Shown here in pieces: positions 2,985 to 30,727 of a stretch of DNA of 32,000 bases (its first letter is position 1; the number at the start of each line of letters is the position of its first letter). This stretch comes from Flavobacteriaceae bacterium. Lineage in GTDB: Bacteria; Bacteroidota; Bacteroidia; Flavobacteriales; Flavobacteriaceae. The notes under the pieces are model-generated. The model was not told the origin of the DNA, ran no database searches, and saw nothing but the letters and a program-made list of their open reading frames with translations. The position numbers were made by a program, and so were the translations under genes. The stretch spans positions 2,940,001 through 2,972,000 of the forward strand of contig OZ245049.1 of the NCBI GenBank assembly GCA_965224465.1, given 5' to 3'.

Positions 2985-4256
2985 TTACAAGTCAAACCCT
3001 ATATCTGATCTAAAATTTACTCCATCGAAGCAGATTTTATCAATATTTTTATAAGACTGTTTTAAAGCCGATTTAAAATCGTCTCCAAAGGAAGTAATTG
3101 CAATTACACGACCTCCGTTGGTTACAATGGTATCGTCTTTTTGAATTGTTCCAGCATGAAAAACAATAGAATCCTCAACTTTATCGAGACCTTCAATGGT
3201 TTTTCCTTTTTCATAAGCTTCTGGATATCCACCAGAAACTAACATTACTGTAGCAGCACTTTCTTCTTTAAATTCTATTTTCTGATTGGCTAAATTTCCT
3301 TTACCCGTTTCAATTAACAAGTGCAAGAAATCACTTTTAATACGTGGGATTACTACTTCGCTTTCAGGATCTCCCATGCGGCAATTGTACTCTATTACCA
3401 TTGGTTCGTTATTTACTTTAATCAATCCAAAGAAAATAAATCCTTTGTACGAGATCCCATCCTTTTTAAGCCCTTCTACGGTCGGTTTAATCACCCGCTC
3501 CTCTATCTTGTCTAAATACACTTTATCAGCAAAGGAAACAGGCGAAATAGCACCCATACCTCCCGTGTTGAGTCCAGCATCACCTTCTCCAATCCTTTTA
3601 TAATCTTTTGCATTGGGTAAACTTACATAACTATCTCCATCTGTCAATACAAAACAGCTCATTTCTATACCGTCCAAAAACTCTTCAATAACGACTTTTG
3701 CGCTTGCTGCACCAAATTTCTGATGGGTAAGCATATCATTTAATTCTGACTTTGCTTGGTCTAAATCATTTAAAATAAGCACACCTTTTCCGGCAGCCAA
3801 TCCATCTGCTTTTAAAACATAAGGCTGCGTTAAAGAATCTAAAAAGGCATATCCTTCTTTCACATTTGCTACAGTAAAACTTTTATAAGCAGCGGTAGGA
3901 ATGTTGTGGCGGAACATAAATTTCTTAGCAAACTCTTTACTTCCCTCTAGCTGTGCAGCATATTTTTGTGGGCCAATTACGGCAACATTTTTTAAAGCAT
4001 CGTCTTCCAAAAAGAAATCGTGAATTCCTTGAACCAAAGGATCTTCTGGGCCTACGACTACCAATTGAATTTTATGTTGAATAACCGCAGCTTTTACGGC
4101 ATCAAAGTCGGTAGGGTTTACATCCAAATTAGTTCCTACTTGGGCTGTTCCTGCATTTCCTGGGGCTATAAATAACTGAGTTAATAATTTGCTTTGAGCA
4201 ATTTTCCATGCCATAGCATGTTCTCTACCTCCTGCACCTAAAATTAATGTGTTCAT
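2985..4256 (-). CDS. purD: phosphoribosylamine--glycine ligase
   Basis: 423 aa. N-terminal ILGAGGREHAMAWK, an ATP-grasp core (LKADGLAAGKGV, EEFLDGIE, NTGGMG) and a C-terminal GGRV motif. Confidence 0.95.
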   Translation of the reverse strand: MNTLILGAGGREHAMAWKIAQSKLLTQLFIAPGNAGTAQVGTNLDVNPTDFDAVKAAVIQHKIQLVVVGPEDPLVQGIHDFFLEDDALKNVAVIGPQKYAAQLEGSKEFAKKFMFRHNIPTAAYKSFTVANVKEGYAFLDSLTQPYVLKADGLAAGKGVLILNDLDQAKSELNDMLTHQKFGAASAKVVIEEFLDGIEMSCFVLTDGDSYVSLPNAKDYKRIGEGDAGLNTGGMGAISPVSFADKVYLDKIEERVIKPTVEGLKKDGISYKGFIFFGLIKVNNEPMVIEYNCRMGDPESEVVIPRIKSDFLHLLIETGKGNLANQKIEFKEESAATVMLVSGGYPEAYEKGKTIEGLDKVEDSIVFHAGTIQKDDTIVTNGGRVIAITSFGDDFKSALKQSYKNIDKICFDGVNFRSDIGFDL

Positions 4257-4281: not shown

Positions 4282-5967
4282 TTAAAAAATTTGTTCTAGA
4301 ATTTTTTCTGTAATCACATAGGTTGGTAAAACGCCTGTGGTTCCAAGTCCACCGGAAGCAAGTGTACTTCCCGTTTCTAATGGATTGTCCGATGCATAAT
4401 AAGCATACCTAACATGCACTTTTTTTGAAATATTACCTCTAATTCTAGAAGCTGCTTGGATGGCTTTTTGATAGTGAGCTCCTTCCATTTCCAAACCAAT
4501 AACTTTCCACGTGGAACGGTGAAAAAATTTAAGAATGTCTTTATTTTGTAATGATGTTCCTAAAACGGTAACCATCGCACCACTCACCACATCTACGCCA
4601 CAGTTTTGAAACATACTTTTCTTGAGTTGATTTTTAAAGGGATAATTATCCGCAGTCCCTTCAAAAATATGTGCATTTGGAATCATAATATCACCTTTAC
4701 CACCTTCTAAAATCCCCGCTTTCCCCATGATAGAAACCGATTCTATATTCATAAAATACTTTTTCTTTCCTGCTGTTTTGTAAGGTTTCAATAGTTCGTC
4801 CATTGTTTCATACGCTTGTTCTCCAAAGGCATAATCCATAACAATTAATACCGGTTTTACGCCGTCCTTACTATAATTAATTTTATAATTGGTTTTAGAA
4901 AAATCTATTTTTTCAGTATCAATAATTTGAACATTGATATTTGTTCCAGAAGTATCTTTTACGTAGATCAATCCATTTTCAGCCGCAAAATTTTTCACTT
5001 TTTTACGTAGTAAATTATTTTTAGATTCGCTCAACATCTCAAACAATGCAATTCCTTTGAGATCTGCTGCTTCTTTTTTGAGTACCATTGGCGCGTAAAT
5101 AGAATTCATAACGCTATGCATATTAGCACTAATGATATGGACTGGGCGTTCAATTAAATTATTTTCAAATAGGGATTTTTTGATCGTTGTAGCCCAAACA
5201 TCCCCGTAAATATGATGTCCAATACGCTCCCTTAACACAGGAGAAAAGGTGATGGTTCTTTTTTGATTTTTACGACGTTCATTAATTGCCAAATATCCTA
5301 ACCAAAAAATAATTTGAAAAAATCTATTTGGATTTTCTTCGGATGAAAATGCATTATAAGCCTCCAAAACTTCGGCAAAAGTACGACCTAAAATATTCCC
5401 TACATGCGCCATTAGTACTTCGCGTTCTTCAATAGAAATATCTTTGTTATACACTACAATTTCTTCCAATCGTTTCCATTCACGAATGGTATCTTGATCC
5501 TTATTAATCAATACCGTATTCGCAATTTTATGTGACTCTATAAACAAAAAAGTAAGGTGCGTAAGGATGTCGTAAATTTCAGACCTACCCCTCGTTACCT
5601 CAATATTCATTTGATCTTTGTCTATTCTATAACAATTTCTGCGACGTTTAGGCGGCACAATTACTTTAAAACTAGCATTTGAATACCCTTCATCTGCAGT
5701 CAAATTTGTAAACTGGCACTCCTCTATCCCTTCTGGTAAACGCTCTATCACATAAATAAGTCCGTTTAATTCTACCTTTTCATCCGCAATAGATCCATAA
5801 ATTTCTGGTCGTAGTAACAACAATGCTTCTCGAAGAGCATCTCCCGAAACCCCCATTGGTTTATAAAAACCACGACTGAACAAATGGCGCATCGTAATAT
5901 ACAAACGTTCAATAGCACTCGAAGATTCCTGAGCACGTGTTCTATTAAGTGTAATTGATTTATGCAT
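4282..5967 (-). CDS. conserved hypothetical protein; the C-terminal ~200 aa resemble the nucleoside phosphorylase / AMP nucleosidase (PNP_UDP_1) fold
   Basis: Long uninterrupted 561-aa ORF. C-terminal motifs are VLIVMDYAFGEQA, GKAGIL.GGKGDIMIP, VTVLGTSL and GLEMEGAHYQKA (compare the EMEsaa motif of phosphorylase family 1). Coding status is secure; the function is inferred. Confidence 0.6.
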   Translation of the reverse strand: MHKSITLNRTRAQESSSAIERLYITMRHLFSRGFYKPMGVSGDALREALLLLRPEIYGSIADEKVELNGLIYVIERLPEGIEECQFTNLTADEGYSNASFKVIVPPKRRRNCYRIDKDQMNIEVTRGRSEIYDILTHLTFLFIESHKIANTVLINKDQDTIREWKRLEEIVVYNKDISIEEREVLMAHVGNILGRTFAEVLEAYNAFSSEENPNRFFQIIFWLGYLAINERRKNQKRTITFSPVLRERIGHHIYGDVWATTIKKSLFENNLIERPVHIISANMHSVMNSIYAPMVLKKEAADLKGIALFEMLSESKNNLLRKKVKNFAAENGLIYVKDTSGTNINVQIIDTEKIDFSKTNYKINYSKDGVKPVLIVMDYAFGEQAYETMDELLKPYKTAGKKKYFMNIESVSIMGKAGILEGGKGDIMIPNAHIFEGTADNYPFKNQLKKSMFQNCGVDVVSGAMVTVLGTSLQNKDILKFFHRSTWKVIGLEMEGAHYQKAIQAASRIRGNISKKVHVRYAYYASDNPLETGSTLASGGLGTTGVLPTYVITEKILEQIF

Positions 5968-6259: not shown

Positions 6260-7582
6260 CTAAGCGGTTACGCAACCAAAAACATAAGAATTTAAAAGTT
6301 GCAAGGTTCTAATTTTATCATCGGAATGCACCAAAATAGAGATGTTGTTATTGCTTCCTCCATAAGAAATCATACGTACTGATATATCCTGTAACACTTT
6401 AAAAAACTTATAGGTATTTTTGTGATGTACAATTTGATTCCCAACCAAACAAATAATACTCTGATGTTCATCTATTTCTACGGTTGAAAATTTCTCCAAT
6501 TCAGAAACAATTTCTTGGAGATATTTGGTAGCATCAATTGTCAAGGAAATGGCAATTTCTGAGGTTGTAATCATATCAATAGACGTTTCATATTTCTCGA
6601 AAATTTCGAATACTTTTTTCAAAAAACCATGAGCCTGTAACATGCGTGCAGATTTTATTTTAATCGCCGTAATAGCATCCTTTGCAGCCATCGCCTTAAT
6701 TCCAACCTCACTTGCATTTTTATTGATCAATGTCCCATACGAAAGAGGTTGCATTGTGTTTTTTAAACGTACAGGTATATTTGCTTTTCGTGCAGGCATC
6801 ACCGTTTGAGGGTGCAGAATTTTAGCGCCAAAATAGGCCAATTCCGCAGCTTCATCAAAAGACAAATTTGAAATGGCATGTGTGTCTGATACAAAACGTG
6901 GATCATTGGTGTGTAAACCATCAATATCTGTCCATATCTGAACTTCATCGGCATCCAATGCTGCCCCAATTATTGTAGCGGAATAATCACTTCCACCACG
7001 TTCTAAATTAGAAATATTACCCTCGTTATCCAGGCAAATAAAACCCTGGGTTACATATATATCTGCCGTAATTCCCTCTTTTATAAGTCGATTTAAATTT
7101 TGTTTGATATAAAAATTATCAGGTTCACCATCTTTATCCACTCGCATAAATTCCAAGGCAGGTAACAAACGGGTCTTTATGTGTTGGCTCTTTAAAAAAT
7201 GAGTAAACATAAAGGTAGAAAGCAACTCTCCTTTGGAGACTATATTATTATACAAAAATGATTGTAAAGGATTGGAAATTAACAGTGTTAATTCTAAAAA
7301 AACAGCATCTACATAATTAAATACCAACTGTTTACATTCAGATCTTTCAAACAATTCGTCCAATACATTTATATAATGCTGTTGCAACTCCTTTAAATTT
7401 TGCAAGGCCAATTGTTGTTGATTGTCAATTGCTAACCTATATAATTCTACCAAGGCATTGGTTGTACCAGACATCGCAGAAAGTACCACTATCTTAGTCG
7501 TTCCATCCACAATAATATCCTTTACCATGTGCATGTTTATAACTGATCCTACAGATGTTCCTCCAAATTTTAATACGTTCAT
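6260..7582 (-). CDS. lysC: aspartate kinase
   Basis: MNVLKFGGTSVG start, VVLSAMSGTTN, a GGSDYSA-type motif (ERGGSDYSATIIGA), LHPQTV, and a C-terminal ACT-like repeat region. 440 aa. Confidence 0.9.
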   Translation of the reverse strand: MNVLKFGGTSVGSVINMHMVKDIIVDGTTKIVVLSAMSGTTNALVELYRLAIDNQQQLALQNLKELQQHYINVLDELFERSECKQLVFNYVDAVFLELTLLISNPLQSFLYNNIVSKGELLSTFMFTHFLKSQHIKTRLLPALEFMRVDKDGEPDNFYIKQNLNRLIKEGITADIYVTQGFICLDNEGNISNLERGGSDYSATIIGAALDADEVQIWTDIDGLHTNDPRFVSDTHAISNLSFDEAAELAYFGAKILHPQTVMPARKANIPVRLKNTMQPLSYGTLINKNASEVGIKAMAAKDAITAIKIKSARMLQAHGFLKKVFEIFEKYETSIDMITTSEIAISLTIDATKYLQEIVSELEKFSTVEIDEHQSIICLVGNQIVHHKNTYKFFKVLQDISVRMISYGGSNNNISILVHSDDKIRTLQLLNSYVFGCVTA

Positions 7583-7749
7583 TTCTATTAATTTTACACA
7601 AACTTATATTTATTTATACTTTTAGTAAATTTTTTAAATTATTATATCTAATTTTGTACTAGATGTTAATTATTTAACATTCTACCTTAGGTTATACTTA
7701 ATTATTTGATTTTAAGTAAGATCTAAAAGAAATACATAAAACACAACTC

Positions 7750-8409
7750 ATGAAAACAATTGCACATTGTGTAGAAGAAATATTGATCACTCAGCCATTT
7801 CTAGAAGAAGCAATTAACAGAAATATTGTGAATTACAGCGCACTAGCAGAAGAACTAAGAGAACCTATAGGGAAAATTTTAAGAAAACCTGTAAAAGCTG
7901 GAGCCATAATGATGGCTTTGAGAAGATATTCTCCACCTAAAGAACTAGGAAATAAAGTAAAATTACAACAAGTATTAAAGAATTTAGGAGACATTACGGT
8001 ACGATCAGATTTATCGGATTATACCTTTAAAAATTCTGATAATTTAATTCGAAGTCATTCAAATATCATAGAACTCCTAAAAAAAGACCCTCAAATATTT
8101 TACACATTTACCCGGGGAATACATGAAAGTAATATTTTAATAACCAGTAAGTTTAAGCACCATGTAAAGGAGAGTTACAAACATGAATTGTGTACTTCTG
8201 TGCAACATAATCTATCTGCCATTACCATCGGATTACCACAAATGAACACAAAGATTTCTGGTCTATATTATCAGTTTTTTAAACGATTGGCATGGGAGGG
8301 AATTGCGCTTTATGAAGTGATTTCTACCACCAATGAATTCACCATTATTGTAGAAGATGATGTCGTAGACAAGGCATTCTCGGTGATTAAAAAATTAAAA
8401 CTAAGCTAA
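7750..8409 (+). CDS. hypothetical protein, possibly with a C-terminal ACT-like domain
   Basis: 219-aa ORF with normal composition, divergent from lysC. The C-terminal segment (LAWEGIALYEVISTTNEFTIIVEDDVVDKAFSVI) is reminiscent of ACT domains. Confidence 0.55.
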   Translation: MKTIAHCVEEILITQPFLEEAINRNIVNYSALAEELREPIGKILRKPVKAGAIMMALRRYSPPKELGNKVKLQQVLKNLGDITVRSDLSDYTFKNSDNLIRSHSNIIELLKKDPQIFYTFTRGIHESNILITSKFKHHVKESYKHELCTSVQHNLSAITIGLPQMNTKISGLYYQFFKRLAWEGIALYEVISTTNEFTIIVEDDVVDKAFSVIKKLKLS

Positions 8410-9142: not shown

Positions 9143-10006
9143 ATGAAACCTGCGTCTATCAAACATTTTATAGAAATAAACATCGCCATTTTATTGATAT
9201 CCACCTCTGGTGCATTAGGTAAATATATACACTTGCCTCCGCCTGTAATCATTTGGATGCGCAGTCTATTGGCCGTGTTTTTTTTAGGTCTATATTGTTG
9301 GTACAAAGGGATAAATTTTAAAATTAAAGACACAAAAAACAGAAAAACCATCTTTTTAAGTGGTGTGTTTATGGGAATTCACTGGGTGACCTATTTTTAC
9401 GCACTGCACCTTTCAAATGTAGCCATCGGAATGCTTTCATTATTTACGTACCCCGTAATCACTACATTTCTAGAACCCCTCTTTTTAAAATCAAAAATAA
9501 ATATACGTCACGTATTTCTAGGTATAATGGTACTGATTGGCATCCAATACTTAGTGCCAGATTTTGACATTAAAAACGACCAAACATTGGGTATTATTTC
9601 TGGTTTAGTATCGGCAATATTTTATGCAATGCGGAATATTTTAATGAAAAAAATGGTAAATAACCACCATGGTTCACTCTTAATGTTTTACCAAATGCTG
9701 GTTATATCAATCTTTTTATGGCCCGTATTATTCTATTTTGATTTCACAGTAAACACAAATGATATTACTGCATTATTAGTCTTAGCATTAGTGACAACCA
9801 CCATAGGACATACCTTGTTTGTAATGAGTTTTAAAAATTTCACAGTAGGCACAGCTAGTATAATGAGTAGTATTCAACCTGTATATGGAATTATTTTCGC
9901 CTACTTTTTATTATCAGAAACACCTAATACCAACACCATTATAGGAGGTTCAATCATCGTGTGTACGGTAATTATTGAAGCTGTTTTTCATAAGAAAAAA
10001 GCTTAA
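9143..10006 (+). CDS. EamA/DMT-family transporter
   Basis: About 10 hydrophobic helices in two EamA-like halves. The tracked ORF begins at a TTG (9119); the first ATG is at 9143. Confidence 0.85.
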   Translation: MKPASIKHFIEINIAILLISTSGALGKYIHLPPPVIIWMRSLLAVFFLGLYCWYKGINFKIKDTKNRKTIFLSGVFMGIHWVTYFYALHLSNVAIGMLSLFTYPVITTFLEPLFLKSKINIRHVFLGIMVLIGIQYLVPDFDIKNDQTLGIISGLVSAIFYAMRNILMKKMVNNHHGSLLMFYQMLVISIFLWPVLFYFDFTVNTNDITALLVLALVTTTIGHTLFVMSFKNFTVGTASIMSSIQPVYGIIFAYFLLSETPNTNTIIGGSIIVCTVIIEAVFHKKKA

Positions 10007-10313
10007 ATTCATAGAAGTACCAACAACTTTACCCCCAGTTAATCGGGAAGATAGTACCAAGTAAGCTACCACCACAACTACGAAAAGATATGTTGCTGCA
10101 GAAACTTAACATATGTTAACTTCTCTAATTGGAAGATGTCTTTTTATAAGAAAGCAGATAAGACCCAAACGATGCTAGTATTAATAAATGAACTTACATC
10201 TAAAATGACCTGTATAAATAATCTGCTTTACATTGTATAGAGTTAAAGAACAAAACGATAGTTAAGGATTTTCTTAGATTTTACGCCGAGATCAAACAAA
10301 AGATAATTTGATA

Positions 10314-10722
10314 TAGAAACCGATTGTCGCTTGGAAATGTATTTGGTATAACTCATAAAATAAGAATAGATCACAGGTAAAACAACATGTATGAGGCTGG
10401 TAAAACTAGGTTTTAAATTGCATCATAATGATATCCGCAAGGGAAACGTTGTAAAAAGATATTACGTAGCTAAAACACTATAAAAAGCACACAAGAAGCA
10501 TAGCGCAAATCATAATTCCTAACAATAATAAAGCAATCCTAGTAAAGACTGTTAGCTAATATATCAATTACAATCCGAAATAACCGAGATAAGTAGTTTA
10601 TTTTACGCGCTAGCGTTGATAAAAAATAGAACGAAAGCTATGGCTATACTCCCATTTTTCGCCTAGCTAAAACAGAAAATAATTCCATTTCTAAACAGTC
10701 AATTGGAAGTAAATTTGGTATT
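10314..10722 (+). repeat. diverged single unit of the ~412-bp repeat family, bounded by two promoter-like boxes
   Basis: ttggaaatgtatttggtata at 10331-10350 is identical to 13717-13736. The stretch 10575-10722 (aaataaccgaga...hairpin...box) aligns with every unit of the 11935-13750 array. Confidence 0.7.
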
Positions 10723-10938
10723 ACACCCAGAACGTATAAACCTAAAAAACAGTTATTTTATAGGTGGTTTTCCCCTTAATGAACATCCCCTTTTTGTATT
10801 AAAATGATAGAGCAGGCAAGGCTTCTCGGTGATAAAATGTTAAATTAGGCTTAAAAAAACATTAATGTTTCCCAAAAAACAGATGTGTATATGCATATAA
10901 ACTACATTTGGCAGAAATTAATAAACAAATTAAATATT

Positions 10939-11469
10939 ATGAAAACAAATTTTTTAAAAAAAGCAATTGTATTGACAGCTATTATCACCGTATTGGTAAG
11001 TTGTGGAAAAAAAGATGATGACGTTAAAAATAAAGCGGATATTGTTGGAGAATGGACAATGAAAAGTTTAAAAAGTACTACTACAATAAACTCAACAGTA
11101 AAAGGAAAGACCTTTGAAACAAAAATTACTGCAAATACGAATCAAACAAAGGTTATTTTTGCATTTAATAAAAACAAAGAAATTCATGCCAATGGAACTT
11201 ACAACCTTAAAATAACGGCTGTAGTCAATGGAAAAACTTCAACCAGTGAGATGAAAGACCAAAAAATAGTAGGTATGGAAGGTACTTGGAAAATAAAAGG
11301 TAATAAACTTAACATCACTGGTAAAGACAAAAAAGTACAGGAATACGTGATTAATTTACTAACTAAAAAAGAGTTAAAATTATCACTTGTAAAAAATAAA
11401 ACTAACACTATCTCTGGTGTAACAACGAAAGAAAAAACGTCAACTATCATTGAGTTAACAAGAAAATAA
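10939..11469 (+). CDS. lipocalin-like lipoprotein (paralog B)
   Basis: MKTNFLKKAIVLTAIITVLVSCGKKDD signal/lipobox. Homologous to 8508..9047. The tracked ORF starts at an upstream GTG (10885); the ATG at 10939 is the likelier start. Confidence 0.75.
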   Translation: MKTNFLKKAIVLTAIITVLVSCGKKDDDVKNKADIVGEWTMKSLKSTTTINSTVKGKTFETKITANTNQTKVIFAFNKNKEIHANGTYNLKITAVVNGKTSTSEMKDQKIVGMEGTWKIKGNKLNITGKDKKVQEYVINLLTKKELKLSLVKNKTNTISGVTTKEKTSTIIELTRK

Positions 11470-11477
11470 CAAAAAGT

Positions 11478-11506
11478 GGGGAATTATAACTAATTCCCCT
11501 TTTTTT
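11478..11506 (+). terminator. rho-independent terminator
   Basis: ggggaatt (11478-11485) and aattcccc (11492-11499) form the stem, followed by T7. Confidence 0.75.
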
Positions 11507-11564
11507 ATGCATTTTCCATCGATTTCTTAGTACAAGAAAACTCCCCATAAAGTAATAAACCACC

Positions 11565-11900
11565 ATGAAATAAACTTAATATTAAATATTTTATAGAACT
11601 AAACATCGCACTTTTTCTAATCTCCAACTTTGGTATATAAGGTAAATACATACAGTTACCTCCACCAGAAATTATTTGGATATGTAGTTATAATAGCAGT
11701 GCTAATTTAAGACCTTTATTATTAGTATAAAGGGTTATATTTCAAATTAAAGACACAAAAACTATCTTTTTAAGTGGTGTATTTATGGGGATCCACTAGG
11801 TCACCAATTTTTACACGTTACATCATTGCAATGTAGCCATCGGAACACTTTTATTATCCACATATCCAGTCAAAACCTTTCTAGAATCCCTTATTTTTCA
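11565..11900 (+). pseudogene. degraded copy of the 5' third of the EamA transporter gene
   Basis: Aligns with 9143-9490 at roughly 75-80% nucleotide identity by eye (for example aaattaaagacacaaaaa, ctttttaagtggtgt.tttatggg, aatgtagccatcggaa). It is riddled with stops and frameshifts and truncated after about codon 115. Confidence 0.8.
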
Positions 11901-11934
11901 CCTCACATGGTTCTCTGTATAATTATACATATAC

Positions 11935-13750
11935 CAAGACAAAACAACCAATATAATTAGTTTTTGTACGTTCTAGCGTTCTTGAAAAACAGAACGATAG
12001 CTAAGGAGAGCCTTCCATTTTTCACCTAAATAAAACAACAAATAATTACATACATATCTAAACCGTCACTTAGAAATATATTTGCTATTACTGGCTTCAA
12101 AAGTAACACCAGATTATGAGAGTAAGTACGGCAAAACATTGGATGAAATTTTAAGTTTAGGAACAGTTATCACGTATAAAATCGAAAATATGTTAACACA
12201 ATATATGGTACATAAATACTGATTTTTTACTCTTTATTTGTTAGCAAATGATAGTTATATTGCTCTTTTTATAGCTCGATCTATTCTACCTTGATTCCAT
12301 TATAAACACAAATAACAGCACTACTTTATCGCTACTTATATACCAATTACATGCCAAAATAACCGATAAAAATAGTATATATAACGTTCTATAGTTGTTG
12401 AAAACAGAAGGATCGCTGAGACTAGTCTTCCATTTTTAGACTAGCTAAAACAATAATTAAATACATACCTAAACTAATCATTTAGAAATATATTTAGTAT
12501 TACTGGCTTCAATAATAACACCAAATAATGAGAGTAATACGATCAAATATTGGATGGAATTTTAAGTATAGCCACCGTAATCGTGTCTAAAATTAGAATT
12601 ATTTTAGCACCAAAAACGGTACATAAACACTGTTTTTTCCTCTTTATTTTTAGCAAATGATAGTTATATTGCTCTTTTTATAGCTCAATCTATGCTACCC
12701 TGATTCCATTATAAACACAAATAACAGCACTACTTTATCGCTACTTCTATACCAACTACAAGCCAAAATAACCGATAAAAATAGTATATATAACGTTATT
12801 TAGTTGTTGAAAAACAGAACGATCGCTGGGACTAGTCTTCCATTTTTAGACTAGCTAAAACAACAAATAATTACATACATATCTAAACCATCACTTAGAA
12901 ATAAATTTGCTATTACTGGCTTCAATAATAACACCAAATAATGAGAGTAATACGATCAAATATTGGATGGAATTTCAAGTTTAGCCACCGTAATCGTGTC
13001 TAAAATTAGAATTATTTGAGCACAAAAAACGGTACATAAACACTGTTGTTCCCTCTTTATTTTTAGCAAATGATAGTTATATTGCTCTTTTTATAGCACG
13101 ATCTATGTCTACCCTGATTCCACAATAAACACAAAGAACAGCACTACTTTATCGCTACTTCTATACCAACTACAAGCCAAAATAACCGATAAAAATAGTA
13201 TATATAACGTTATTTAGTTGTTGAAAAACAGAACGATCGCTGGGACTAGTCTTCCATTTTTAGACTAGCTAAAACAACAAATAATTACATACATATCTAA
13301 ACCATCACTTAGAAATAAATTTGCTATTACTGGCTTCAATAATAACACCAAATAATGAGAGTAATACGATCAAATATTGGATGGAATTTCAAGTTTAGCC
13401 ACCGTAATCGTGTCTAAAATTAGAATTATTTTAGCACAAAAAACGATACATAAACACTGTTTTTTACTCTTTAATTATTAGAAAACGATAGTTATATTGC
13501 TCTTTTATAGCTCGATCTATGCTACCCTAATTGCATTATAAACACAAATAACAGCACTACTTAACGCTACATACATACCAATTACATGCCAAAATAACCG
13601 ATAAAAATAGTATATATAAGGTCCTAGCGGCATTGAAAAACAGAACGATAGCTGAGCCTGTCCTTCCATTTTTCACCTAATTAAAACAAAAAATAACAAC
13701 ATTTATAAACCGTCAATTGGAAATGTATTTGGTATATACGTCTCTGAAAA
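11935..13750 (+). repeat. tandem array of ~412-bp units, about 4.4 copies, non-coding
   Basis: The anchor acgtt.t..g occurs at 11968, 12384, 12793, 13207 and 13619 (spacings 416, 409, 414, 412). Units 3 and 4 are identical over their first ~240 nt. No ORF of 60 aa or more on either strand. Confidence 0.92.
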
Positions 13751-13820
13751 TTAAACGTAAGAACAAAAATTATGAGTAATAAAACAACAGTTGATTCAAG
13801 CTGTTTTGACACAATTAAAC

Positions 13821-13851
13821 AAAAAAAATCAGCCTTTTAAGACTGATTTTT
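13821..13851 (-). terminator. rho-independent terminator downstream of the skp-like gene
   Basis: aaaatcag (13825-13832) and ctgatttt (13843-13850). On the minus strand the hairpin is followed by a T8 run. Confidence 0.6.
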
Positions 13852-13876
13852 AATATATAATAGAAATAAATACGTC

Positions 13877-14392
13877 CTATTTTTTGTATTGAGCATTCAT
13901 TATTGTCAACATATCTTTGGTAACGCTCAAGGTTGAATCACCATACATTACAGTACCTTTTCCAGTAGTTCCCATAATTAAATGGTAGCCATTTTTTGTA
14001 GCAAAAATAGTCACTAAACTATCTAATAATTGAGTGATTTCTGCTGTACTATCTCTACCCATTTTTTGTAGATCCATGGTAGCTTGCTGTTGTTTTCCTT
14101 GTAACATTTGTTGTTCCATTTGTAAGGAAGCTTCCATTTCTTGTCTTTTCTTAGCATTCAATTTACTAGCTTTAGAATAATAGTTTTTCACTTTATTCTG
14201 AAAAATTGAAGATAAACTATCTAAACTTTTCGCCATTGTTTCTTGTTTTGCTTTGATGTCCAATTCAAGGTCTTTCATCCCCTCATATCCAGTCATCACT
14301 TTTTCTACATCCATGTAACCAATCTTTGTTTGATTACAAGAAGAAATCATTATTGCTAGTACAACAATGCTAATTACGTTTTTAATGTTCAT
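13877..14392 (-). CDS. OmpH/Skp-family periplasmic chaperone
   Basis: 171 aa with a signal peptide and a Q/K/E-rich coiled-coil core (QMEQQMLQGKQQQA), the typical size and composition for OmpH. Confidence 0.8.
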   Translation of the reverse strand: MNIKNVISIVVLAIMISSCNQTKIGYMDVEKVMTGYEGMKDLELDIKAKQETMAKSLDSLSSIFQNKVKNYYSKASKLNAKKRQEMEASLQMEQQMLQGKQQQATMDLQKMGRDSTAEITQLLDSLVTIFATKNGYHLIMGTTGKGTVMYGDSTLSVTKDMLTIMNAQYKK

Positions 14393-14599
14393 TATAAATA
14401 TTATTATTTCAAGCGAAGATAAAAATTACACGTTACAAATAACAACTAACGGATATAAAAAAATATAAAAGTTTAAAATACACGTAAATAAAATTGAGTT
14501 TGTCTTAAAAAACAAAAAAAAGAAGAAAACCGACAAAAAACAGCCTGTTTTAAGCCTTGTTTAAGAAGGTATCAAAATATTCTCGACACAGAAGACCTA

Positions 14600-17500
14600 A
14601 TTAAAGTAAAGCTTTAAATAACGAGCATCTAAATCAATTTTAATATAAAAAATAGCTGTTTTAGATAAAAAAGACAACGTTTAGAACAAAAAAGGACTTA
14701 AAATAGAATATTTCTACAAAATTGAGAACAACTCTAATTCGTTTTAATAATTAAAAAACCTATATATAAAAAACAGCACCTAATCAAGGTGAAGATTTCA
14801 AAGCATGTTTATACATCCTTCTAATAAAAACGAATTAAATGAAATATTAAAACAGGTTCTTATGTACAGAGTATAATACATTCCGTAAAAATTAAATTCA
14901 TAGATGACACACAATTATAAAGAATCAAACAATCATAAAGCAATTCTCTTTGCCCACAGGCAACAATAATCAGTAAGAATTCGCTTAGTAAATCAAGGAA
15001 ACAAACATAAACAATGAGTGATAAACACTTAAAAAACCAGTTGTAGAACCAAAAGAAAGTAGCAATTAGTCCTAAAAAAGAAGATTTCAAAAGAATTAAC
15101 AGGGCTTCGTAGCCAAAAAGAAGTCGTATTCCGTGTAAACACGAATAAAAAAGAACCAAAAAAAAGCCAACATAAACGGCTCAAACAATAGAAAAGCGGC
15201 TTCGCCTAGCTCACAAGTAACATTAATAGCAAAAATTAACGAAGAAAATGAAGGAAACAAACACAAATAACGAGGTAAACACACTTAAAAAATTGCTTTT
15301 AGAACCAAAAACAACCAACAATCAGTCCTAAAAAAGAGGATTTGAAAAGTATCAACAGAGCTTCGCAGCCTAAAAAACGTCATATTCCGTGTAAATACGA
15401 ATAAAAAAGAAGGAAAATAGCGAACATAATCAGACCAAACAATCGAAAAGTGACTTCCCCTAGCCTACAAGTATCATTAATAGCAAGAATTAACGAAGAA
15501 AATGAAAGAAACAAACACAAATAACGAGGCAAACACTCTAAAAAAATCAGTTGTAGAACCAAAAACAACCAACAAACAGTCCTAAAAAACAGGATTTGAA
15601 AAGCATTAACAGGGATTCGTAGCCTAAAAGGCATCCTGTTCCGTGTAAATACGAATAAAAAAAGAACCAAAAACAGCGAACATAAACAGCCCAAACAATA
15701 GAAAAGCGGCTTCGCCTAGATCACAAGTAACATTAATAGCAAAAATTAACGAAGAAAATGAAGGAAACAAACACAAATAACGAGGCAAACACACTTAAAA
15801 AATTGCTATTAGAACCAAAAACAACCAACAATCAGTCCTAAAAAAGAAGATTTGAAAAGTATCAACAGAGCTTCGCAGCCTAAAAAACGTCATATTCCGT
15901 GTAAATACGAATAAAAAAGAAGGAAAATAGCGAACATAATCAGACCAAACAATCGAAAAGTGACTTCCCCTAGCCTACAAGTATCATTAATAGCAAGAAT
16001 TCACGCAGAAAATAAAGGAAACAAATACAAATAACGAGGCAAACACACTGAAAAATTGCTTTTAGAACCAAAAGCAAGTACCAATTCATCATAAAAAAGA
16101 GGATTTGAAAAGCATCAAAAGGAATTCTCAGCCTAAAAGGCATCATATTCCGTATAAATACGGTTAAAAAAAGACCAAAAACAGCCAATACAAACAGCTC
16201 AAACAATAGAAAATCGGCTTCCCCTAGCCTACAAGTAACATTAATAGCGAAAATTTACACTAAAAACCAAGGGAACAATCTTAAATAACGAGGCAAACAC
16301 TCTAAAAAAATCAGTTGTAGAACCAAAAACAAGTACCAATTCATCATAAAAAAGAAGAATTCAAAAGCATTAACAGGGATTCGTAGTATAAAACGCATCC
16401 TGTTCCGTGTAAATACGAATAAAAAAAGAACCAAAAACAGCGAACATAAACAGCCCAAACAATAGAAAAGCGGCTTCGCCTAGCTCACAAGCAAGATTAA
16501 CAGCAAAAATTCACGCAGAAAATGAAGGAAACAATCATAAATAACGAGGCAAACAAACTTAAAAAATCAGTTTTAGAACCAAAAACAACCAACAACCAGT
16601 CCTAAAAAAGAGGATTTCAAAAGAATTAACAGGGATTCGTAGCCTAAAAAACGTCATATTTCGTGTAAATACGAATAAAAAAGAACCAAAAACAGCCAAC
16701 ACAAACATCTCAAACAATAGAAAAGCGGCTTCGCCTAGCTCACAAGTAACATTAATAGCAAAATTAACGAAGAAAATGAAGGAAACAAACACAAATAACG
16801 AGGCAAACACACTTAAAAAATTGCTATTAGAACCAAAAACAACCAACAATCAGTCCTAAAAAAGAGGATTTAAAAAGTATCAACAGAGCTTCGCAGCCTA
16901 AAAAACGTCATATTCCGTGTAAATACGAATAAAAAAGAAGGAAAATAGCGAACATAATCAGACCAAAAAATCGAAAAGTGACTTCCCCTAGCCTACAAGT
17001 ATCATTAATAGCAAGAATTCACGCAGAAAATAAAGGAAACAAATACAAATAACGAGGCAAACACACTGAAAAATTGCTTTTAGAACCAAAAGCAAGTACC
17101 AATTCATCATAAAAAAGAGGATTTGAAAAGCATCAAAAGGAATTCAGCCTAAAAGGCATCATATTCCGTATAAATACGGTTAAAAAAAGACCAAAAACAG
17201 CCAATACAAACAGCTCAAACAATAGAAAATCGGCTTCCCCTAGCCTACAAGTAACATTAATAGCGAAAATTTACACTAAAAACCAAGGGAACAATCTTAA
17301 ATAACGAGGCAAACACTCTAAAAAAATCAGTTGTAGAACCAAAAACAAGTACCAATTCATCATAAAAAAGAAGAATTCAAAAGCATTAACAGGGATTCGT
17401 AGTATAAAACGCATCCTGTTCCGTGTAAATACGAATAAAAAAAGAACCAAAAACAGCGAACATAAACAGCCCAAACAATAGAAAAGCGGCTTCGCCTAGC

Positions 17501-18540
17501 TCACAAGCAACATTAACAGCAAAAATTCACGCAGAAAATGAAGGAAACAATCATAAATAACGAGGCAAACAAACTTAAAAAATCAGTTTTAGAACCAAAA
17601 ACAACCAACAACCAGTCCTAAAAAAGAGGATTTGAAAAGCATTAACAAGGGTTCTCAGCCTAAAAGACGTCATATTCCGTGTAAATACGAATAAAAAAGA
17701 ACCAAAAACAGCCAATACAAACAGCTCAAACAATAGAAAAGCGGCTTCCCCTAGCCCACAAGTAACATTAATAGCAAAAATTTACACAGAAAATAAAGGA
17801 AACAAACACAAATAACGAGGCAAACACACTTAAAAAATTGCTTTTAGAACCAAAAGCAAGTAGCAATCAGTCCTAAAAAAGAGGATTTGAAAAGCATTAA
17901 CAGGGATCCGTAGCCTAAAAGGCATCCTGTTCCGTGTAAATACGGTTAAAAAAAGACCAAAAACAGCCAACACAAACAGCTCAAACAATAGAAAAGCGGC
18001 TTCCCCTAGCCCACAAGTAACATTAATAGCAAGAATTCACACTAAAAACCAAGGGAACAATCATAAATAACGAGGCAATCCCTCAAATAATATCGCTTTT
18101 AGAACCAAAAACAAGTAGCAATCAGTCCTAAAAAAGAGGATTTCAAAAGAATTAACAGGGATTCGTAGCCTAAAAGGCATCCTGTTCCGTGTAAATACGA
18201 GTAAAAAAGAAGCAAAAATAGCCAATACAAACGGCTCAAACAACAGAAAAGCGGCTTCCCCTAGCCTACAAGTAACATTAATAGCAAAAATTTACACAGA
18301 AAATAAAGGGAACAATCATAAATAACGAGGCAATCCCTCAAATAATATCGCTTTTAGAACCAAAAACAAGTAACAATCAGTCCTAAAAAAGAGGATTTGA
18401 AAAGCATCAAAAGAAATTCGTAGCCTAAAAGGCATCCTGTTCCGTGTAAATACGAGTAAAAAAGAAGCAAAAACAGCCAATACAAACGGCTCAAACAACA
18501 GAAAAGCGGCTTCCCCTAGCCTACAAGTAATACTAAACAG
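14600..18540. repeat. satellite-like tandem array of ~254-bp units
   Basis: The anchor aaataacgagg occurs at 15265, 15519, 15775, 16029, 16283, 16539, 16793, 17047, 17299, 17555, 17810, 18065 and 18320 (spacings 252-256). A degenerate unit sits at ~15008 and decayed units reach back to ~14600. The period is not a multiple of 3. Confidence 0.95.
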
Positions 18541-18668
18541 AAATAATTAACACAGAAATTCAAGAAAACAACAATATTCTGTATCTATTATCACTTAGAA
18601 ATCGTCATGAAATCAAAAACTAAAGAGAAATAAAACACATCTTAACACAAAAAAACCACGAATTCTAT

Positions 18669-18684
18669 AGTTCCACGTGGAACA
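18669..18684. other. parS-like ParB-binding palindrome (15/16 to the local consensus)
   Basis: AGTTCCACGTGGAACA. The local consensus TGTTCCACGTGGAACA differs from the classical parS TGTTNCACGTGAAACA at one base. Confidence 0.65.
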
Positions 18685-18755
18685 TAAGGCAATAAATATC
18701 CTGTTTCTAGATAAAAAACATCAACAAAGTAATAAAAGAAATAAAATACACGTAC

Positions 18756-18781
18756 AAAAAAGAGGCTAAAAAGCCTCTTTT
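18756..18781 (-). terminator. rho-independent (bidirectional) terminator after the methyltransferase gene
   Basis: agaggc (18761-18766) and gcctct (18773-18778), flanked by an A-run and a T-run. The minus-strand reading gives the hairpin followed by T6. Confidence 0.75.
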
Positions 18782-18812
18782 GTAGTGTTTACTATATAAA
18801 AAATCAAAGAAA

Positions 18813-19691
18813 TCAATGCTCTTTTCTTAAAATATAGCAATGAGAAGAGACTTCCTTGGTAAATAAACCCTTAAAATTCGAGTATAAACCGATAAAAAAG
18901 GCACGTATATGACTAGATCTACCTCTTTTATAACCTTCACTCAGCATAGAAACATAGAAAGAATCGAACCACATAGGACGTGTTTCGATTAATTTAAGAC
19001 CTTTATTCCCGAATATAACTGCAATAGCGCTTCTAGAAAAATGCCATAAATGTCTCGGAACATCAAAAGCAGCCCAAAAAGAACCATAATAACGAGCATC
19101 AAAAGACTTGAAATTAGGAACAGCAATGATTAAAACACCTGTTTCAGACAGTAAATTATAAAGTTGATTGACAGTTTCTTCTAAATTTGGAACATGTTCT
19201 AGTACATGCCACATGGTAATAACATCAAATTTAGCGTCGTTTTTACTAGATATAAGATCATCTAAGGAGTCAAAAACACTATTTTTACCTTCCATTTTAC
19301 GAGACATTAATGCTTTTGCGTCATCATTTGGCTCCACACCCACTACATTCCAACCATCATTTTTACAAGAAATCAGGAATTCTCCCGTTCCACAACCGAT
19401 ATCTAAGAGTCGTTTTGATGCGTTTTTATACTTAGAAATGGATTTTACTTTCCTTTTAACAGTGTGTTTCTTTACTTTCTGATACACTTTATCCATCAAA
19501 GAAGCAGTAGCATCTGTGTGAGAAATGTAATTTTCACTCAGATAATACCCTCCTAAATCATCATTTTTAGGTTTTGGAAAGGTAACAAGCATGTCATATG
19601 TATCATGAAATCTCAATTGAAACACCTTATTTGACACTGTATAATCTTTACATTTTAAGAATGAAGACATAAAAAAAGAAGAATTTAGCAC
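18813..19691 (-). CDS. class I SAM-dependent methyltransferase
   Basis: Motif I LLDIGCGTGEF, then DVITMWHVLEHV and GVLIIAVPN. Confidence 0.85.
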   Translation of the reverse strand: MLNSSFFMSSFLKCKDYTVSNKVFQLRFHDTYDMLVTFPKPKNDDLGGYYLSENYISHTDATASLMDKVYQKVKKHTVKRKVKSISKYKNASKRLLDIGCGTGEFLISCKNDGWNVVGVEPNDDAKALMSRKMEGKNSVFDSLDDLISSKNDAKFDVITMWHVLEHVPNLEETVNQLYNLLSETGVLIIAVPNFKSFDARYYGSFWAAFDVPRHLWHFSRSAIAVIFGNKGLKLIETRPMWFDSFYVSMLSEGYKRGRSSHIRAFFIGLYSNFKGLFTKEVSSHCYILRKEH

Positions 19692-27195: not shown

Positions 27196-27279
27196 AATTA
27201 AAAATTCTGTTTAAAAAGCTAAAATACGAAAGACTTAATAAAACCATTGCTACAATTTATAGCAAAATATAAAATAAGA

Positions 27280-28665: not shown

Positions 28666-29094
28666 TTAACAACTTACTTTATCCACACGTGTTTGATGTC
28701 TACCACCTTCAAATTCTGTATTCAAGAAAATAGTAACAAAACCAACAGCCTGTTGTACAGATACAAAGCGCGCAGGGATTGCCAAAATATTAGCATCATT
28801 ATGCAACCTTGTCAATTCAACCAACTCGTTATTCCAACACAAACCAGCTCTAATACCTTGATGTTTATTCGCTGTCATTTGAGCCCCATTCCCACTTCCA
28901 CATATTATAATACCAAAAGTAGCCTTCCCACTTTCTACGGCATCAGCAACAGGATGAATAGCATCTGGGTAATCCATACTCTCAGATGTATCAGTTCCAA
29001 AATTTAAAACTGTATAGTTATTTTTTTCCAAATATTTGATAATTTCGAACTTATATTCAGTACCCGCATGATCGTTCCCAATTGCTATTGTCAT
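28666..29094 (-). CDS. rpiB: ribose-5-phosphate isomerase B
   Basis: MTIAIGNDHAG start, with GIIICGSGNGAQMTANK and RLHNDANILAIPARF. The tracked ORF's 41-aa N-terminal extension is hydrophobic junk upstream of the canonical start. Confidence 0.9.
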   Translation of the reverse strand: MTIAIGNDHAGTEYKFEIIKYLEKNNYTVLNFGTDTSESMDYPDAIHPVADAVESGKATFGIIICGSGNGAQMTANKHQGIRAGLCWNNELVELTRLHNDANILAIPARFVSVQQAVGFVTIFLNTEFEGGRHQTRVDKVSC

Positions 29095-29139: not shown

Positions 29140-29850
29140 CAGAGTTATCCACAGCCAAAAAAAGACATTGTTAATTAAAAACGTCAAGTCAATGATTAAT
29201 AGTAGGTTATAACACATGGTGAAATGTTAATAAATTAACAACTACTAATGATAAATAAACTTTGAAAATTCAATCTTTTTTACAATACAGCGAACACCCC
29301 ATACAAACCTAATTTATTTATAAAATGCAATCCTAAAGTTATCCACAGGTTTTATTAAGGTTATGAACAATCAAAAACGCTATTGTTATAAAAACAAGTG
29401 CTTGCTAACTTTGTTGACACACTGTTGATAAGTACAAATAATTATTGATTTACAAAGTATTACCACGTTGATAAGTCACCACAAATTGTTAATGCTTCTA
29501 ATAATTCGAAAATCAAAATAATAAAGCAACAATTTATGCTAGCTATCAACACACAATATAGCATCATTAATAATTTTTTAATTTTTTAAAAAGTCTTCTA
29601 TTATATATATATATGTTTATAACATAAAAATAAAAAGGAGTTTCTATAAATTAGAAAACTGAAAATGTAAAAATCCTGCTTAAACAAAAACCAATACCAA
29701 TTTAACAATCCACCTTAATAAAAATTAATTGGACAACTTCCAATGAACATACAAACCAAAATACCTTTGTAAAAATAATGAATACTTAAAATACTTTAAA
29801 AAATAGATATTCACAGGATGTAAATAAGCAGCAGTTATACACAATTAAGA
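29140..29850. other. candidate chromosomal replication origin (DnaA-box cluster plus AT-rich unwinding tract)
   Basis: Perfect TTATCCACA at 29145-29153 and 29339-29347. One-mismatch boxes at 29423-29431 (tgttgataa, reverse orientation) and 29835-29843 (ttatacaca), plus several two-mismatch boxes. AT tract at 29565-29640 with a tandem aatttttta motif. The strand-composition switch lies just to the right. Confidence 0.55.
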
Positions 29851-29920
29851 ACCTGTTTAAAAATCATTTTAAGCCTTTTTAAAGGCAAAACTCTTTAGCA
29901 ATACTAGTTATATTAATTAT

Positions 29921-30304: not shown

Positions 30305-30403
30305 AAGACTGTTTATACCAAAATTCTTTTCCAAGTTTCGCTTTAGAAATAGAATTATATTTTGTTTTAACAAGGCTAAAAATGGAAGGATAGCCTTAGT
30401 TAA
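30305..30403 (-). repeat. inverted-orientation copy of the dispersed hairpin-plus-box module
   Basis: The reverse complement reads ctaaggctatccttccatttttagccttgttaaaacaaaatataattctatttctaaagcgaaacttggaaaagaattttggtata. This aligns with 10637-10722 and with each 412-bp unit. Confidence 0.7.
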
Positions 30404-30727
30404 CGTCCTGGGTGTTCATATTTTGTAAACTGGGTAATAGAAAAATCAAATAATAAAGGAACCAAAAGCGCAAGGTCTTTAGATTGGTTAATTTGAGGCA
30501 AAAAGATATCTGAGCCAGTATACGGTGCAATTGCTGTTAAAACTAGAAAAGGAGGAGGTTATGTTGGATTTGTTTTTGCTAAAAAGGGAAATAATGGGAT
30601 TATAATTTTGGGAGGAAACCAAACGGATGAACTAAAAAAATCTTCATATAAAAATAAATCAATATTCACTTATTTTGTACCTCTTAATTACAATATTGAT
30701 AACACCAATCAAAAAAAAGATAAATAA
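30404..30727 (+). pseudogene. 5'-truncated TIGR02594 / NlpC-P60-like peptidoglycan hydrolase fragment with a nonsense codon
   Basis: The frame-2 translation is RPGCSYFVNWVIEKSNNKGTKSARSLDWLI*GKKISEPVYGAIAVKTRKGGGYVGFVFAKKGNNGIIILGGNQTDEL.... The catalytic-Cys motif is retained. The TGA at 30494-30496 sits where the family has a conserved Trp (W-G). No start codon; the fragment begins at the repeat boundary. Confidence 0.7.

Follow-up and report, generated by a model that had tools for sequence, protein, structure and literature searches.

The subject of this analysis is a tandem array in a 32,000-nucleotide stretch of DNA (hereafter, the window) from a Flavobacteriaceae bacterium (GenBank assembly GCA_965224465.1; contig OZ245049.1, positions 2,940,001 to 2,972,000, forward strand). 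The array occupies the spacer between an OmpH-like gene and a methyltransferase gene (Methyltransf_23), and consists of units of ~255 bp that repeat head-to-tail over ~3.6 kb with no unique sequence between them. The neighbors of the array are housekeeping genes; past the methyltransferase gene lie mnmG, ybeY, a 1105-aa gene, and recA. A search of the window for tRNA and tmRNA genes returned none. The coordinates of the features are collected in the table.

Tandem Repeats Finder (TRF), applied to the window, places the array at 14990-18571 (period 255, 84% matches, 14.1 copies). When phased on the anchor AATAACGAGG, it resolves into 14 contiguous full units (u1-u14), with lengths of 254, 254, 256, 254, 254, 256, 254, 254, 252, 256, 255, 255, 255, and 255 bp, in agreement with the period of 252-256 bp given in an earlier note that was made from the letters of this DNA alone. 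A profile hidden Markov model (HMM) of the unit recovers 14 of 14 units (E = 1e-68 to 1e-79). The earlier note had described 13 good units together with one degenerate unit and several decayed units; the head-to-tail arrangement holds, the count becomes 14 full units, and the decayed units at 14600-14920 have to be discarded, part of that stretch belonging instead to the conserved noncoding element that precedes the OmpH-like gene (14507-14677). Neither TRF at low threshold nor a direct-repeat search detected further unit-like sequence left of 14924, and the leftward decay that had been read into 14600-15000 comes down to a weak match of 14924-14980 to the unit end. A sharp right-hand end at ~18540 had also been proposed, close to a parS-like site; the parS-like neighbor is present, but the edge is not perfectly sharp, given that a truncated 15th unit continues to ~18571-18585.

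Across most unit pairs, identity in the alignment identity matrix is 75-90%. Divergence is greatest at the edges, where u1 and u14 have 75-85% identity to most other units (the u13/u14 pair being 92% identical). Inside the array, units u4-u7 and u8-u11 form a higher-order repeat of two 1018-bp four-unit blocks, separated by 17 mismatches and three gap columns over 1019 columns (98.0% identity). The paired units are 98% (u4/u8), 99% (u5/u9), 99% (u6/u10), and 94% (u7/u11) identical, and u2, u4, and u8 are mutually 98% identical. From this sequence comparison, the duplication of the four-unit block appears to be recent. The combination of a higher-order repeat, homogenized blocks, and divergent edges is the pattern expected of unequal crossing-over; the 98% higher-order repeat and the divergent edge units are candidate signs of turnover in this genome.

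Each unit carries the sub-repeat AGAACCAAAAACA twice, ~108 bp apart, as had been noticed previously; at <=2 mismatches there are 32 occurrences in the window, ~25 of them inside the array, versus 4.0 +/- 2.3 in shuffled sequences. One of the two copies is invariant in 10 of 10 aligned units. The earlier note had taken the pair as a sign that the unit itself arose from an older duplication; because the likeness between the two copies spans only ~35 nt and its score is reached by 4 of 500 shuffles, such an intra-unit duplication gains little from this similarity.

The base composition of the whole array on the + strand is A 0.49, C 0.20, G 0.14, and T 0.17, and the hand count made for 15519-15774 (A 128, C 50, G 39, T 39) is exactly right on recount. 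The T-rich strand of the array is the leading strand. In the other spacers of the window, the + strand has A at 0.35-0.54 and T at 0.23-0.46, with A exceeding T in 11 of 14, and the flanking spacer 18549-18812 (A 0.50, T 0.23) is near the unit composition. The A skew of the array is the extreme of a local trend and not a unique property; what had been presented as extreme A-richness is correct as a matter of composition, and partly general for noncoding DNA on this replichore. The A/T strand asymmetry of noncoding DNA on the replichore is much larger than the GC skew. The spacer 27196-27279 has A 0.54 and T 0.27.

The array does not have the properties of a coding sequence. The period is not a multiple of 3, all six frames are interrupted (49-83 stops per frame; longest open stretch 111 codons), and the previous conclusion that this is not a repeat protein is upheld. 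Most units have, on the - strand, an F/L-rich open reading frame (ORF) of 52-67 aa that starts with TTG, but one-base indels shift its N-terminal frame between units, and there is no codon-position bias (variability 0.155, 0.135, and 0.126 at positions 1, 2, and 3, respectively). A 96-aa ORF had no homolog in a word search of 5.8 billion proteins, a profile of six unit ORFs had none among 1.84 billion representatives scanned in full with HMMER, and blastx against the window proteins was negative. The array comprises several contiguous head-to-tail copies (14.1 copies, period 255, 84% matches) and lies outside coding sequence as judged by frame stops, codon positions, and the lack of a protein homolog; by its sequence, it would be classed as a prokaryotic noncoding satellite by definition. 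The previous exclusion of a CRISPR array is likewise sound, in that whole units repeat without unique spacers.

Searches for an RNA product were similarly negative. No Rfam family matched anywhere in the window at gathering thresholds, so that none explains the array; at E <= 10 over 11400-19000 there were six weak matches, all outside both arrays (a second one is described below) and far below gathering scores. Single units fold no more stably than dinucleotide shuffles (z = +0.67 on the - strand and -0.69 on the + strand). Alignment folding and the ORF tests used 10 non-redundant paralogous units of one array, and their power is limited accordingly; the alignment folds at -15.5 kcal/mol (- strand) and -6.1 kcal/mol (+ strand), with two-sided changes in 2 of 36 and 0 of 10 predicted pairs, respectively, and the sole helix predicted on both strands contains no pair with a two-sided compensatory change. 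A structured RNA was rejected on these grounds for both strands (no Rfam match, no excess folding, near-absent covariation). Bacteroidetes-type -7 boxes (TAnnTTTG) are not enriched on the T-rich strand of the array (5 perfect versus ~8 expected from composition), and a TAAGT(T/G)TG box with TTTG ~18 nt upstream recurs at a fixed position on the - strand of several units but is imperfect in most. The array also holds ten terminator-like hairpins followed by T-runs. Every one is on the - strand, the stems are 3-6 bp, and the hairpins appear to be a single chance motif that the repetition has multiplied.

Other kinds of element were also considered. A DnaA box (TTATCCACA, <=1 mismatch) is absent from 14985-18548, the boxes of the window being clustered at 28.7-29.8 kb, and the array was rejected as a set of DnaA-box origin repeats. 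No parS-like sequence was detected inside the array at <=3 mismatches, and the units contain neither inverted repeats of >=14 nt nor a palindromic short repeat. Phased A-tracts or curved DNA were discounted: the spectrum holds harmonics of the 255-bp period only, with no dominant 10.5-bp signal.

The unit also lacks detectable relatives. Searches with the unit profile (nhmmer) gave no homolog in 80 syntenic loci, 120 metagenome loci, and 15 loci of closer relatives. A scan of metagenome and viral contigs for a 22-nt conserved block returned 0 matches, a scan for the sub-repeat-pair pattern returned chance matches only, and blastn of the unit against plasmids and phages returned no match. Based on these searches, the 255-bp unit appears to be species-specific. 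An origin from the ancestral ~250-bp spacer was rejected: the lengths are close (255 versus 236-265 bp), but there is no significant similarity to Lutibacter spacers (L005-L021), and the agreement in length is regarded as a coincidence.

Table. Features of the array locus (window coordinates unless a locus of a relative is named).
Feature	Position	Strand	Evidence and remarks
Diverged left-edge partial unit, ~60 bp	14924-14984		Matches unit profile positions 197-253; nhmmer E = 0.013-0.07 over 14924-14980
14 full units u1-u14, 252-256 bp	14985-18548		TRF, unit alignment and identity matrix, profile matches, composition
Truncated 15th unit, ~37 bp	18549-18585		Unit start only, then diverges; TRF end 18571, end read as ~18571-18585
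Higher-order repeat copy 1 (u4-u7)	15749-16766		98.0% identical to 16767-17783
Higher-order repeat copy 2 (u8-u11)	16767-17783		Unit pairing and block alignment
Sub-repeat AGAACCAAAAACA, example	17591-17603	+	Second copy in same unit at 17698-17710
parS-like palindrome AGTTCCACGTGGAACA	18669-18684		~84 bp beyond array end
Strong bidirectional terminator hairpin of methyltransferase gene	18758-18781		Between methyltransferase gene and array
OmpH-like gene, left flank	13877-14392	-	Pfam OmpH, E = 1.3e-20; ~250 bp from methyltransferase gene in relatives
Methyltransferase gene (Methyltransf_23), right flank	18813-19691	-	Pfam, E = 1.8e-32; conserved gene order
Second tandem array, unrelated, 4.3 units of 409-414 bp	11940-13737	+	TRF, profile matches, alignment to EamA 9536-9775
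Dispersed ~150-bp noncoding element	10202-10353; 10575-10724; 30315-30411; first ~154 bp of every 414-bp unit	- (30315-30411)	Profile matches
Conserved noncoding element upstream of OmpH-like gene, not array	14507-14677	-	Alignment with invariant core
OmpH-upstream element in relatives	L201 9572-9742; L210 ~3661-3848; L205 352-535

The array lies within a cluster of parS-like sites. Six such sites (TGTTCCACGTGGAACA, 0-3 mismatches) occur in the window, at 4503, 18669, 19722, 21626, 21661, and 24392, versus 0.07 expected. Several of these are in short spacers around mnmG, with one inside the 1105-aa gene and one inside a DUF6909 gene; the parS positions around mnmG are conserved in relatives. 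An oriC-like region at ~29.3-29.9 kb combines DnaA boxes, an AT-rich stretch, and a cumulative GC-skew minimum near 30 kb. Perfect or near-perfect DnaA boxes are found at 29339, 29423, and 29835, as well as at 28679 and 29145 inside rpiB, and the AT-rich stretch of the probable oriC is at ~29570-29650. The origin of replication is thus probably at ~29300-29900, and these features together place the array in the predicted origin-proximal partition region, ~11 kb from the oriC-like region.

Across Flavobacteriaceae, the genes keep one order (1105-aa gene, ybeY, mnmG, methyltransferase, OmpH). The methyltransferase-OmpH spacer measures only 236-265 bp in Lutibacter, Croceitalea, and other genera; in these short spacers there was no strong strand skew, and the parS core motif was not found. 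Among the syntenic loci, expansion of the spacer (to 1.8-4.4 kb) is confined to the clade of the window: the spacer is 4420 bp in the window, 3140 and 3007 bp in L201 and L202, respectively (metagenome scaffolds of a NORP129-type species with an OmpH 78% identical), and 1793 bp in L210, which with L211 has an OmpH 73% identical. The L201/L202 spacer contains an array of its own (393 bp x 4.4, 87% identity), whereas the sole repeat in the L210/L211 spacer is an old ~500-bp duplication (60% identity). T-richness on the gene-sense strand is shared by the three expanded spacers, as is the presence of a parS (at 8925 in L201, and 141 bp after the methyltransferase gene in L210). Relative to parS, the window array and the L201 array lie on different sides. 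The spacer repeats are non-homologous between species of the clade, and a search for k-mers of >=9 nt enriched in each of the three expanded spacers found none, the common words being generic and T-rich. In L201, the units copy the 3' end of the methyltransferase gene together with its terminator, and are 61-64% identical to the gene end in the window.

Further repeats or contig ends occur at equivalent or nearby spacers in other relatives. In Aquimarina celericrescens (L018 9261-9757), a 125-bp x 3.6 array is situated 25 bp after parS in the mnmG-methyltransferase spacer, which makes a second, anecdotal instance of an array next to parS, in another genus. In Flavivirga aquatica (L075), 72-nt direct repeats (10881-10952 and 11923-11994; 86% identical, 1042 bp apart) flank an expanded spacer downstream of the methyltransferase gene, in which there is also a parS-like site (11123); the arrangement resembles one duplication or insertion event more than an array. 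The contig of NORP129, the closest GenBank relative (L001), ends inside its 393-bp array (L001 10750-11865; L201 counterpart 6678-8399), and contigs L002, L003, and L010 end ~250-480 bp (within 0.5 kb) after the methyltransferase gene. These contig ends are consistent with spacer arrays breaking short-read assemblies, although contigs of metagenome-assembled genomes (MAGs) are short anyway.

A second tandem array, unrelated in sequence, is located 1.3 kb from the 255-bp array. Identity among its three complete inner units is 90-94%, and the first unit has diverged further. In every 414-bp unit, a ~150-bp dispersed element precedes a decayed EamA piece, which is ~60-65% identical (E = 3e-20) to the internal part of EamA at 9536-9775. 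Relatives have EamA directly after OmpH, which indicates that the 414-bp block is an insertion or duplication specific to the lineage of the window. The array had been described as very unusual; its size is indeed rare, but it is less isolated than had been implied, given the second array and the sister-species arrays in the equivalent spacer. The units in L201 come from the methyltransferase end and the 414-bp units hold a piece of EamA; we therefore regard the arrays here as built from whatever local DNA is duplicated, and their derivation from gene fragments argues for a by-product of duplication rather than a dedicated element.

The dispersed element has the core ...CCATTTTT..CTAAAACA..AATAATT...TTGGAAAT..ATTTGGTAT, and there was no Rfam match to it. 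A hairpin around the CCATTTTT loop in some copies was rejected, in that the stem registers differ and alignment folding gives no consensus structure. One copy is in the oriC-adjacent intergenic region. The conserved noncoding element 115-285 bp upstream of the OmpH-like gene is separate from the array; it is 64-70% identical to L201, L205, L210, and L214, so that every lineage of the clade has it, and its invariant core (TTATTTAAAGnTTTACTTTAA) contains an inverted repeat, TTAAAG-N5-CTTTAA, followed by GTnTTCTGTGT. It has no Rfam match; an operator, a leader, and a small RNA are the candidate roles.

Taken together, we interpret the 255-bp array as lineage-specific noncoding bacterial satellite DNA that arose by local tandem duplication, without a dedicated RNA or protein product, and assign this reading a probability of approximately 0.6. 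A ~255-bp piece of the methyltransferase-OmpH spacer would have been duplicated in tandem, and then amplified and partially homogenized by unequal homologous recombination or replication slippage; the array would persist because an origin-proximal spacer tolerates extra DNA, and would serve at most as inert spacer beside parS. The anatomy, the higher-order repeat, the negative coding and RNA-structure tests, the absence from relatives, and the gene-fragment derivation of the neighboring and sister arrays are shown by the sequences; the recombination mechanism, the neutrality, and the local-spacer origin of the 255-bp unit are components of this model that we infer, the last of them by analogy. 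Certain findings count against it. No source sequence was found for the 255-bp unit in the searches described above; the + strand T depletion of the array (0.17) exceeds that of other local noncoding DNA (0.23-0.46); and the negative folding and ORF tests, with 10 non-redundant paralogous units, carry limited power. In addition, repeats have expanded the sole parS-bearing free spacer in three related lineages, with another array 25 bp from parS in Aquimarina, and this recurrence may point away from neutrality, toward selection or a site-specific process.

The last point leads to the alternative that the array is a cis-acting element of the partition region. It might be an untranscribed parS-side spacer under selection, for instance one that gives sliding ParB clamps or the loading of SMC a runway or insulator, or one that supplies repeated binding sites such as AGAACCAAAAACA, one copy of which is invariant in the aligned units; or it might mark a duplication hot spot, at which the ParB-parS complex provokes fork stalling and tandem duplication. 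The position of the array is compatible with both versions, being ~84 bp from one parS of a six-site cluster and ~11 kb from the oriC-like region, as are the repeats that fill the parS-bearing spacer in L201 and L210, the Aquimarina array, and the shared T-richness of the gene-sense strand in the three expanded spacers. We nevertheless consider either version unlikely. The units are non-homologous between species and share no enriched k-mer, the window and L201 arrays flank parS on different sides, and the units contain neither a parS-like sequence (<=3 mismatches) nor a DnaA box; the longest invariant run is 11 nt, which is not clearly beyond chance (rough estimate p ~0.16). Furthermore, a single ancestral expansion may underlie all three lineages, which would then not be independent events, and the co-occurrence is confounded by the survival of both parS and arrays only in intergenic DNA. 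The 414-bp array and the array in L042 are not beside parS, and most Flavobacteriaceae keep a ~250-bp spacer. A form of the idea in which the parS-bearing free spacer of this clade would be a recurrent birthplace of long tandem arrays, and the array a sequence-independent structural part of the partition region and not junk, is likewise unlikely.

Transcription of the array, either as one long A-rich or U-rich noncoding RNA or as a small RNA per unit with its own promoter and weak terminator (much like the cyanobacterial NsiR1 array), is also improbable. The - strand promoter-like box with TTTG at a fixed place in several units and the ten - strand terminator-like hairpins could be read in this way, and satellites of Bacillus coagulans are reported to be transcribed (PMC8625621); yet the promoter-like boxes are at or below the expectation from composition and imperfect in most units, the terminator-like stems are only 3-6 bp, there is no Rfam match, folding is no better than in shuffles with covariation essentially absent, and the unit is conserved in no relative. 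The strong terminator that ends the methyltransferase gene also separates the array from that upstream gene. An assembly artefact affecting copy number or unit order, by collapse or expansion of near-identical blocks, would be more surprising still. An error of about one block is conceivable given the 98% identity of the 1018-bp blocks and of u2, u4, and u8, and the short-read contigs of relatives do break at or near this spacer (L001 inside its array; L002, L003, and L010 ~0.25-0.5 kb away). However, most units differ by 10-25% and are individually distinguishable, the OmpH gene of the window is on a single contig of 5,241,564 bp, which implies a finished long-read assembly, and independent metagenome scaffolds of the sister species run through the array found there. 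The explanation we regard as close to untenable is a protein product, with the array as what is left of a repetitive protein gene or with each unit encoding a small hydrophobic peptide (the 52-aa F/L-rich ORF on the - strand): most units do have a 52-67-aa ORF with a TTG start, but with 49% T on the strand, chance would yield open stretches this long, and the period that is not a multiple of 3, the one-base indels that change the N-terminal frame, the 49-83 stops per frame, the lack of excess third-position variation, and the absence of a homolog in two very large protein searches all argue against translation.

Compact bacterial genomes seldom contain long noncoding satellites, which have been little studied. 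The locus provides a natural series, in which three related lineages have repeats of different ages in one spacer, and in which two arrays derive from recognizable gene fragments; as we read it, the series shows satellite birth from local duplication, higher-order amplification like that of eukaryotic satellites, and decay. There are also practical consequences, in that such arrays break short-read assemblies and gene callers could be misled by open frames of up to ~100 codons. If the link to parS were causal, for which the present evidence is weak, it would connect partition complexes with instability of the genome nearby or with selection acting on spacer DNA.

Among known repeat systems, eukaryotic alpha-satellite consists of AT-rich units of ~171 bp in thousands of copies, with higher-order repeats, at centromeres. 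The array resembles it in having AT-rich units of a similar scale, multi-unit blocks that are far more alike than neighboring units, and divergent edges; it differs in having 14 units rather than thousands, in that no centromere protein-binding box was identified, and in that parS is outside the units. The sopC centromere array of the F plasmid comprises 12 x 43 bp, each unit with a SopB-binding inverted repeat. The association of a tandem array with a ParB-type partition locus is common to both, but no unit here contains a parS-like sequence even at 3 mismatches, and the array does not belong with sopC. In the Anabaena NsiR1 array, which is conserved among cyanobacteria, every one of about a dozen repeats has its own regulated promoter and terminator; the present array likewise comprises about a dozen intergenic direct repeats, whereas its weak promoter-like and terminator-like motifs, although they recur at fixed places in the unit, do not exceed the expectation from composition, and there is no conservation across species. 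Like CRISPR arrays, it consists of regular repeats in noncoding DNA; unlike them, the whole 255 bp repeats, there are no unique spacers and no palindromic short repeat, and the neighbors are housekeeping genes. The closest likeness is to the surveyed prokaryotic satellites (PMC6749651), with which the array shares its head-to-tail, intergenic, spacer-free, and species-specific character, although it is unlike most of them in its size (3.6 kb), its 255-bp units, its higher-order repeat, and its adjacent parS. In that survey (Subirana and Messeguer, 2019), 2.7% of bacterial satellites exceeded 1.5 kb, and most long-unit satellites were coding and multiples of 3, but long-unit satellites with a length that is not a multiple of 3 were also present (PMC6749651). 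The array thus belongs to a known kind of element, among its rare cases.

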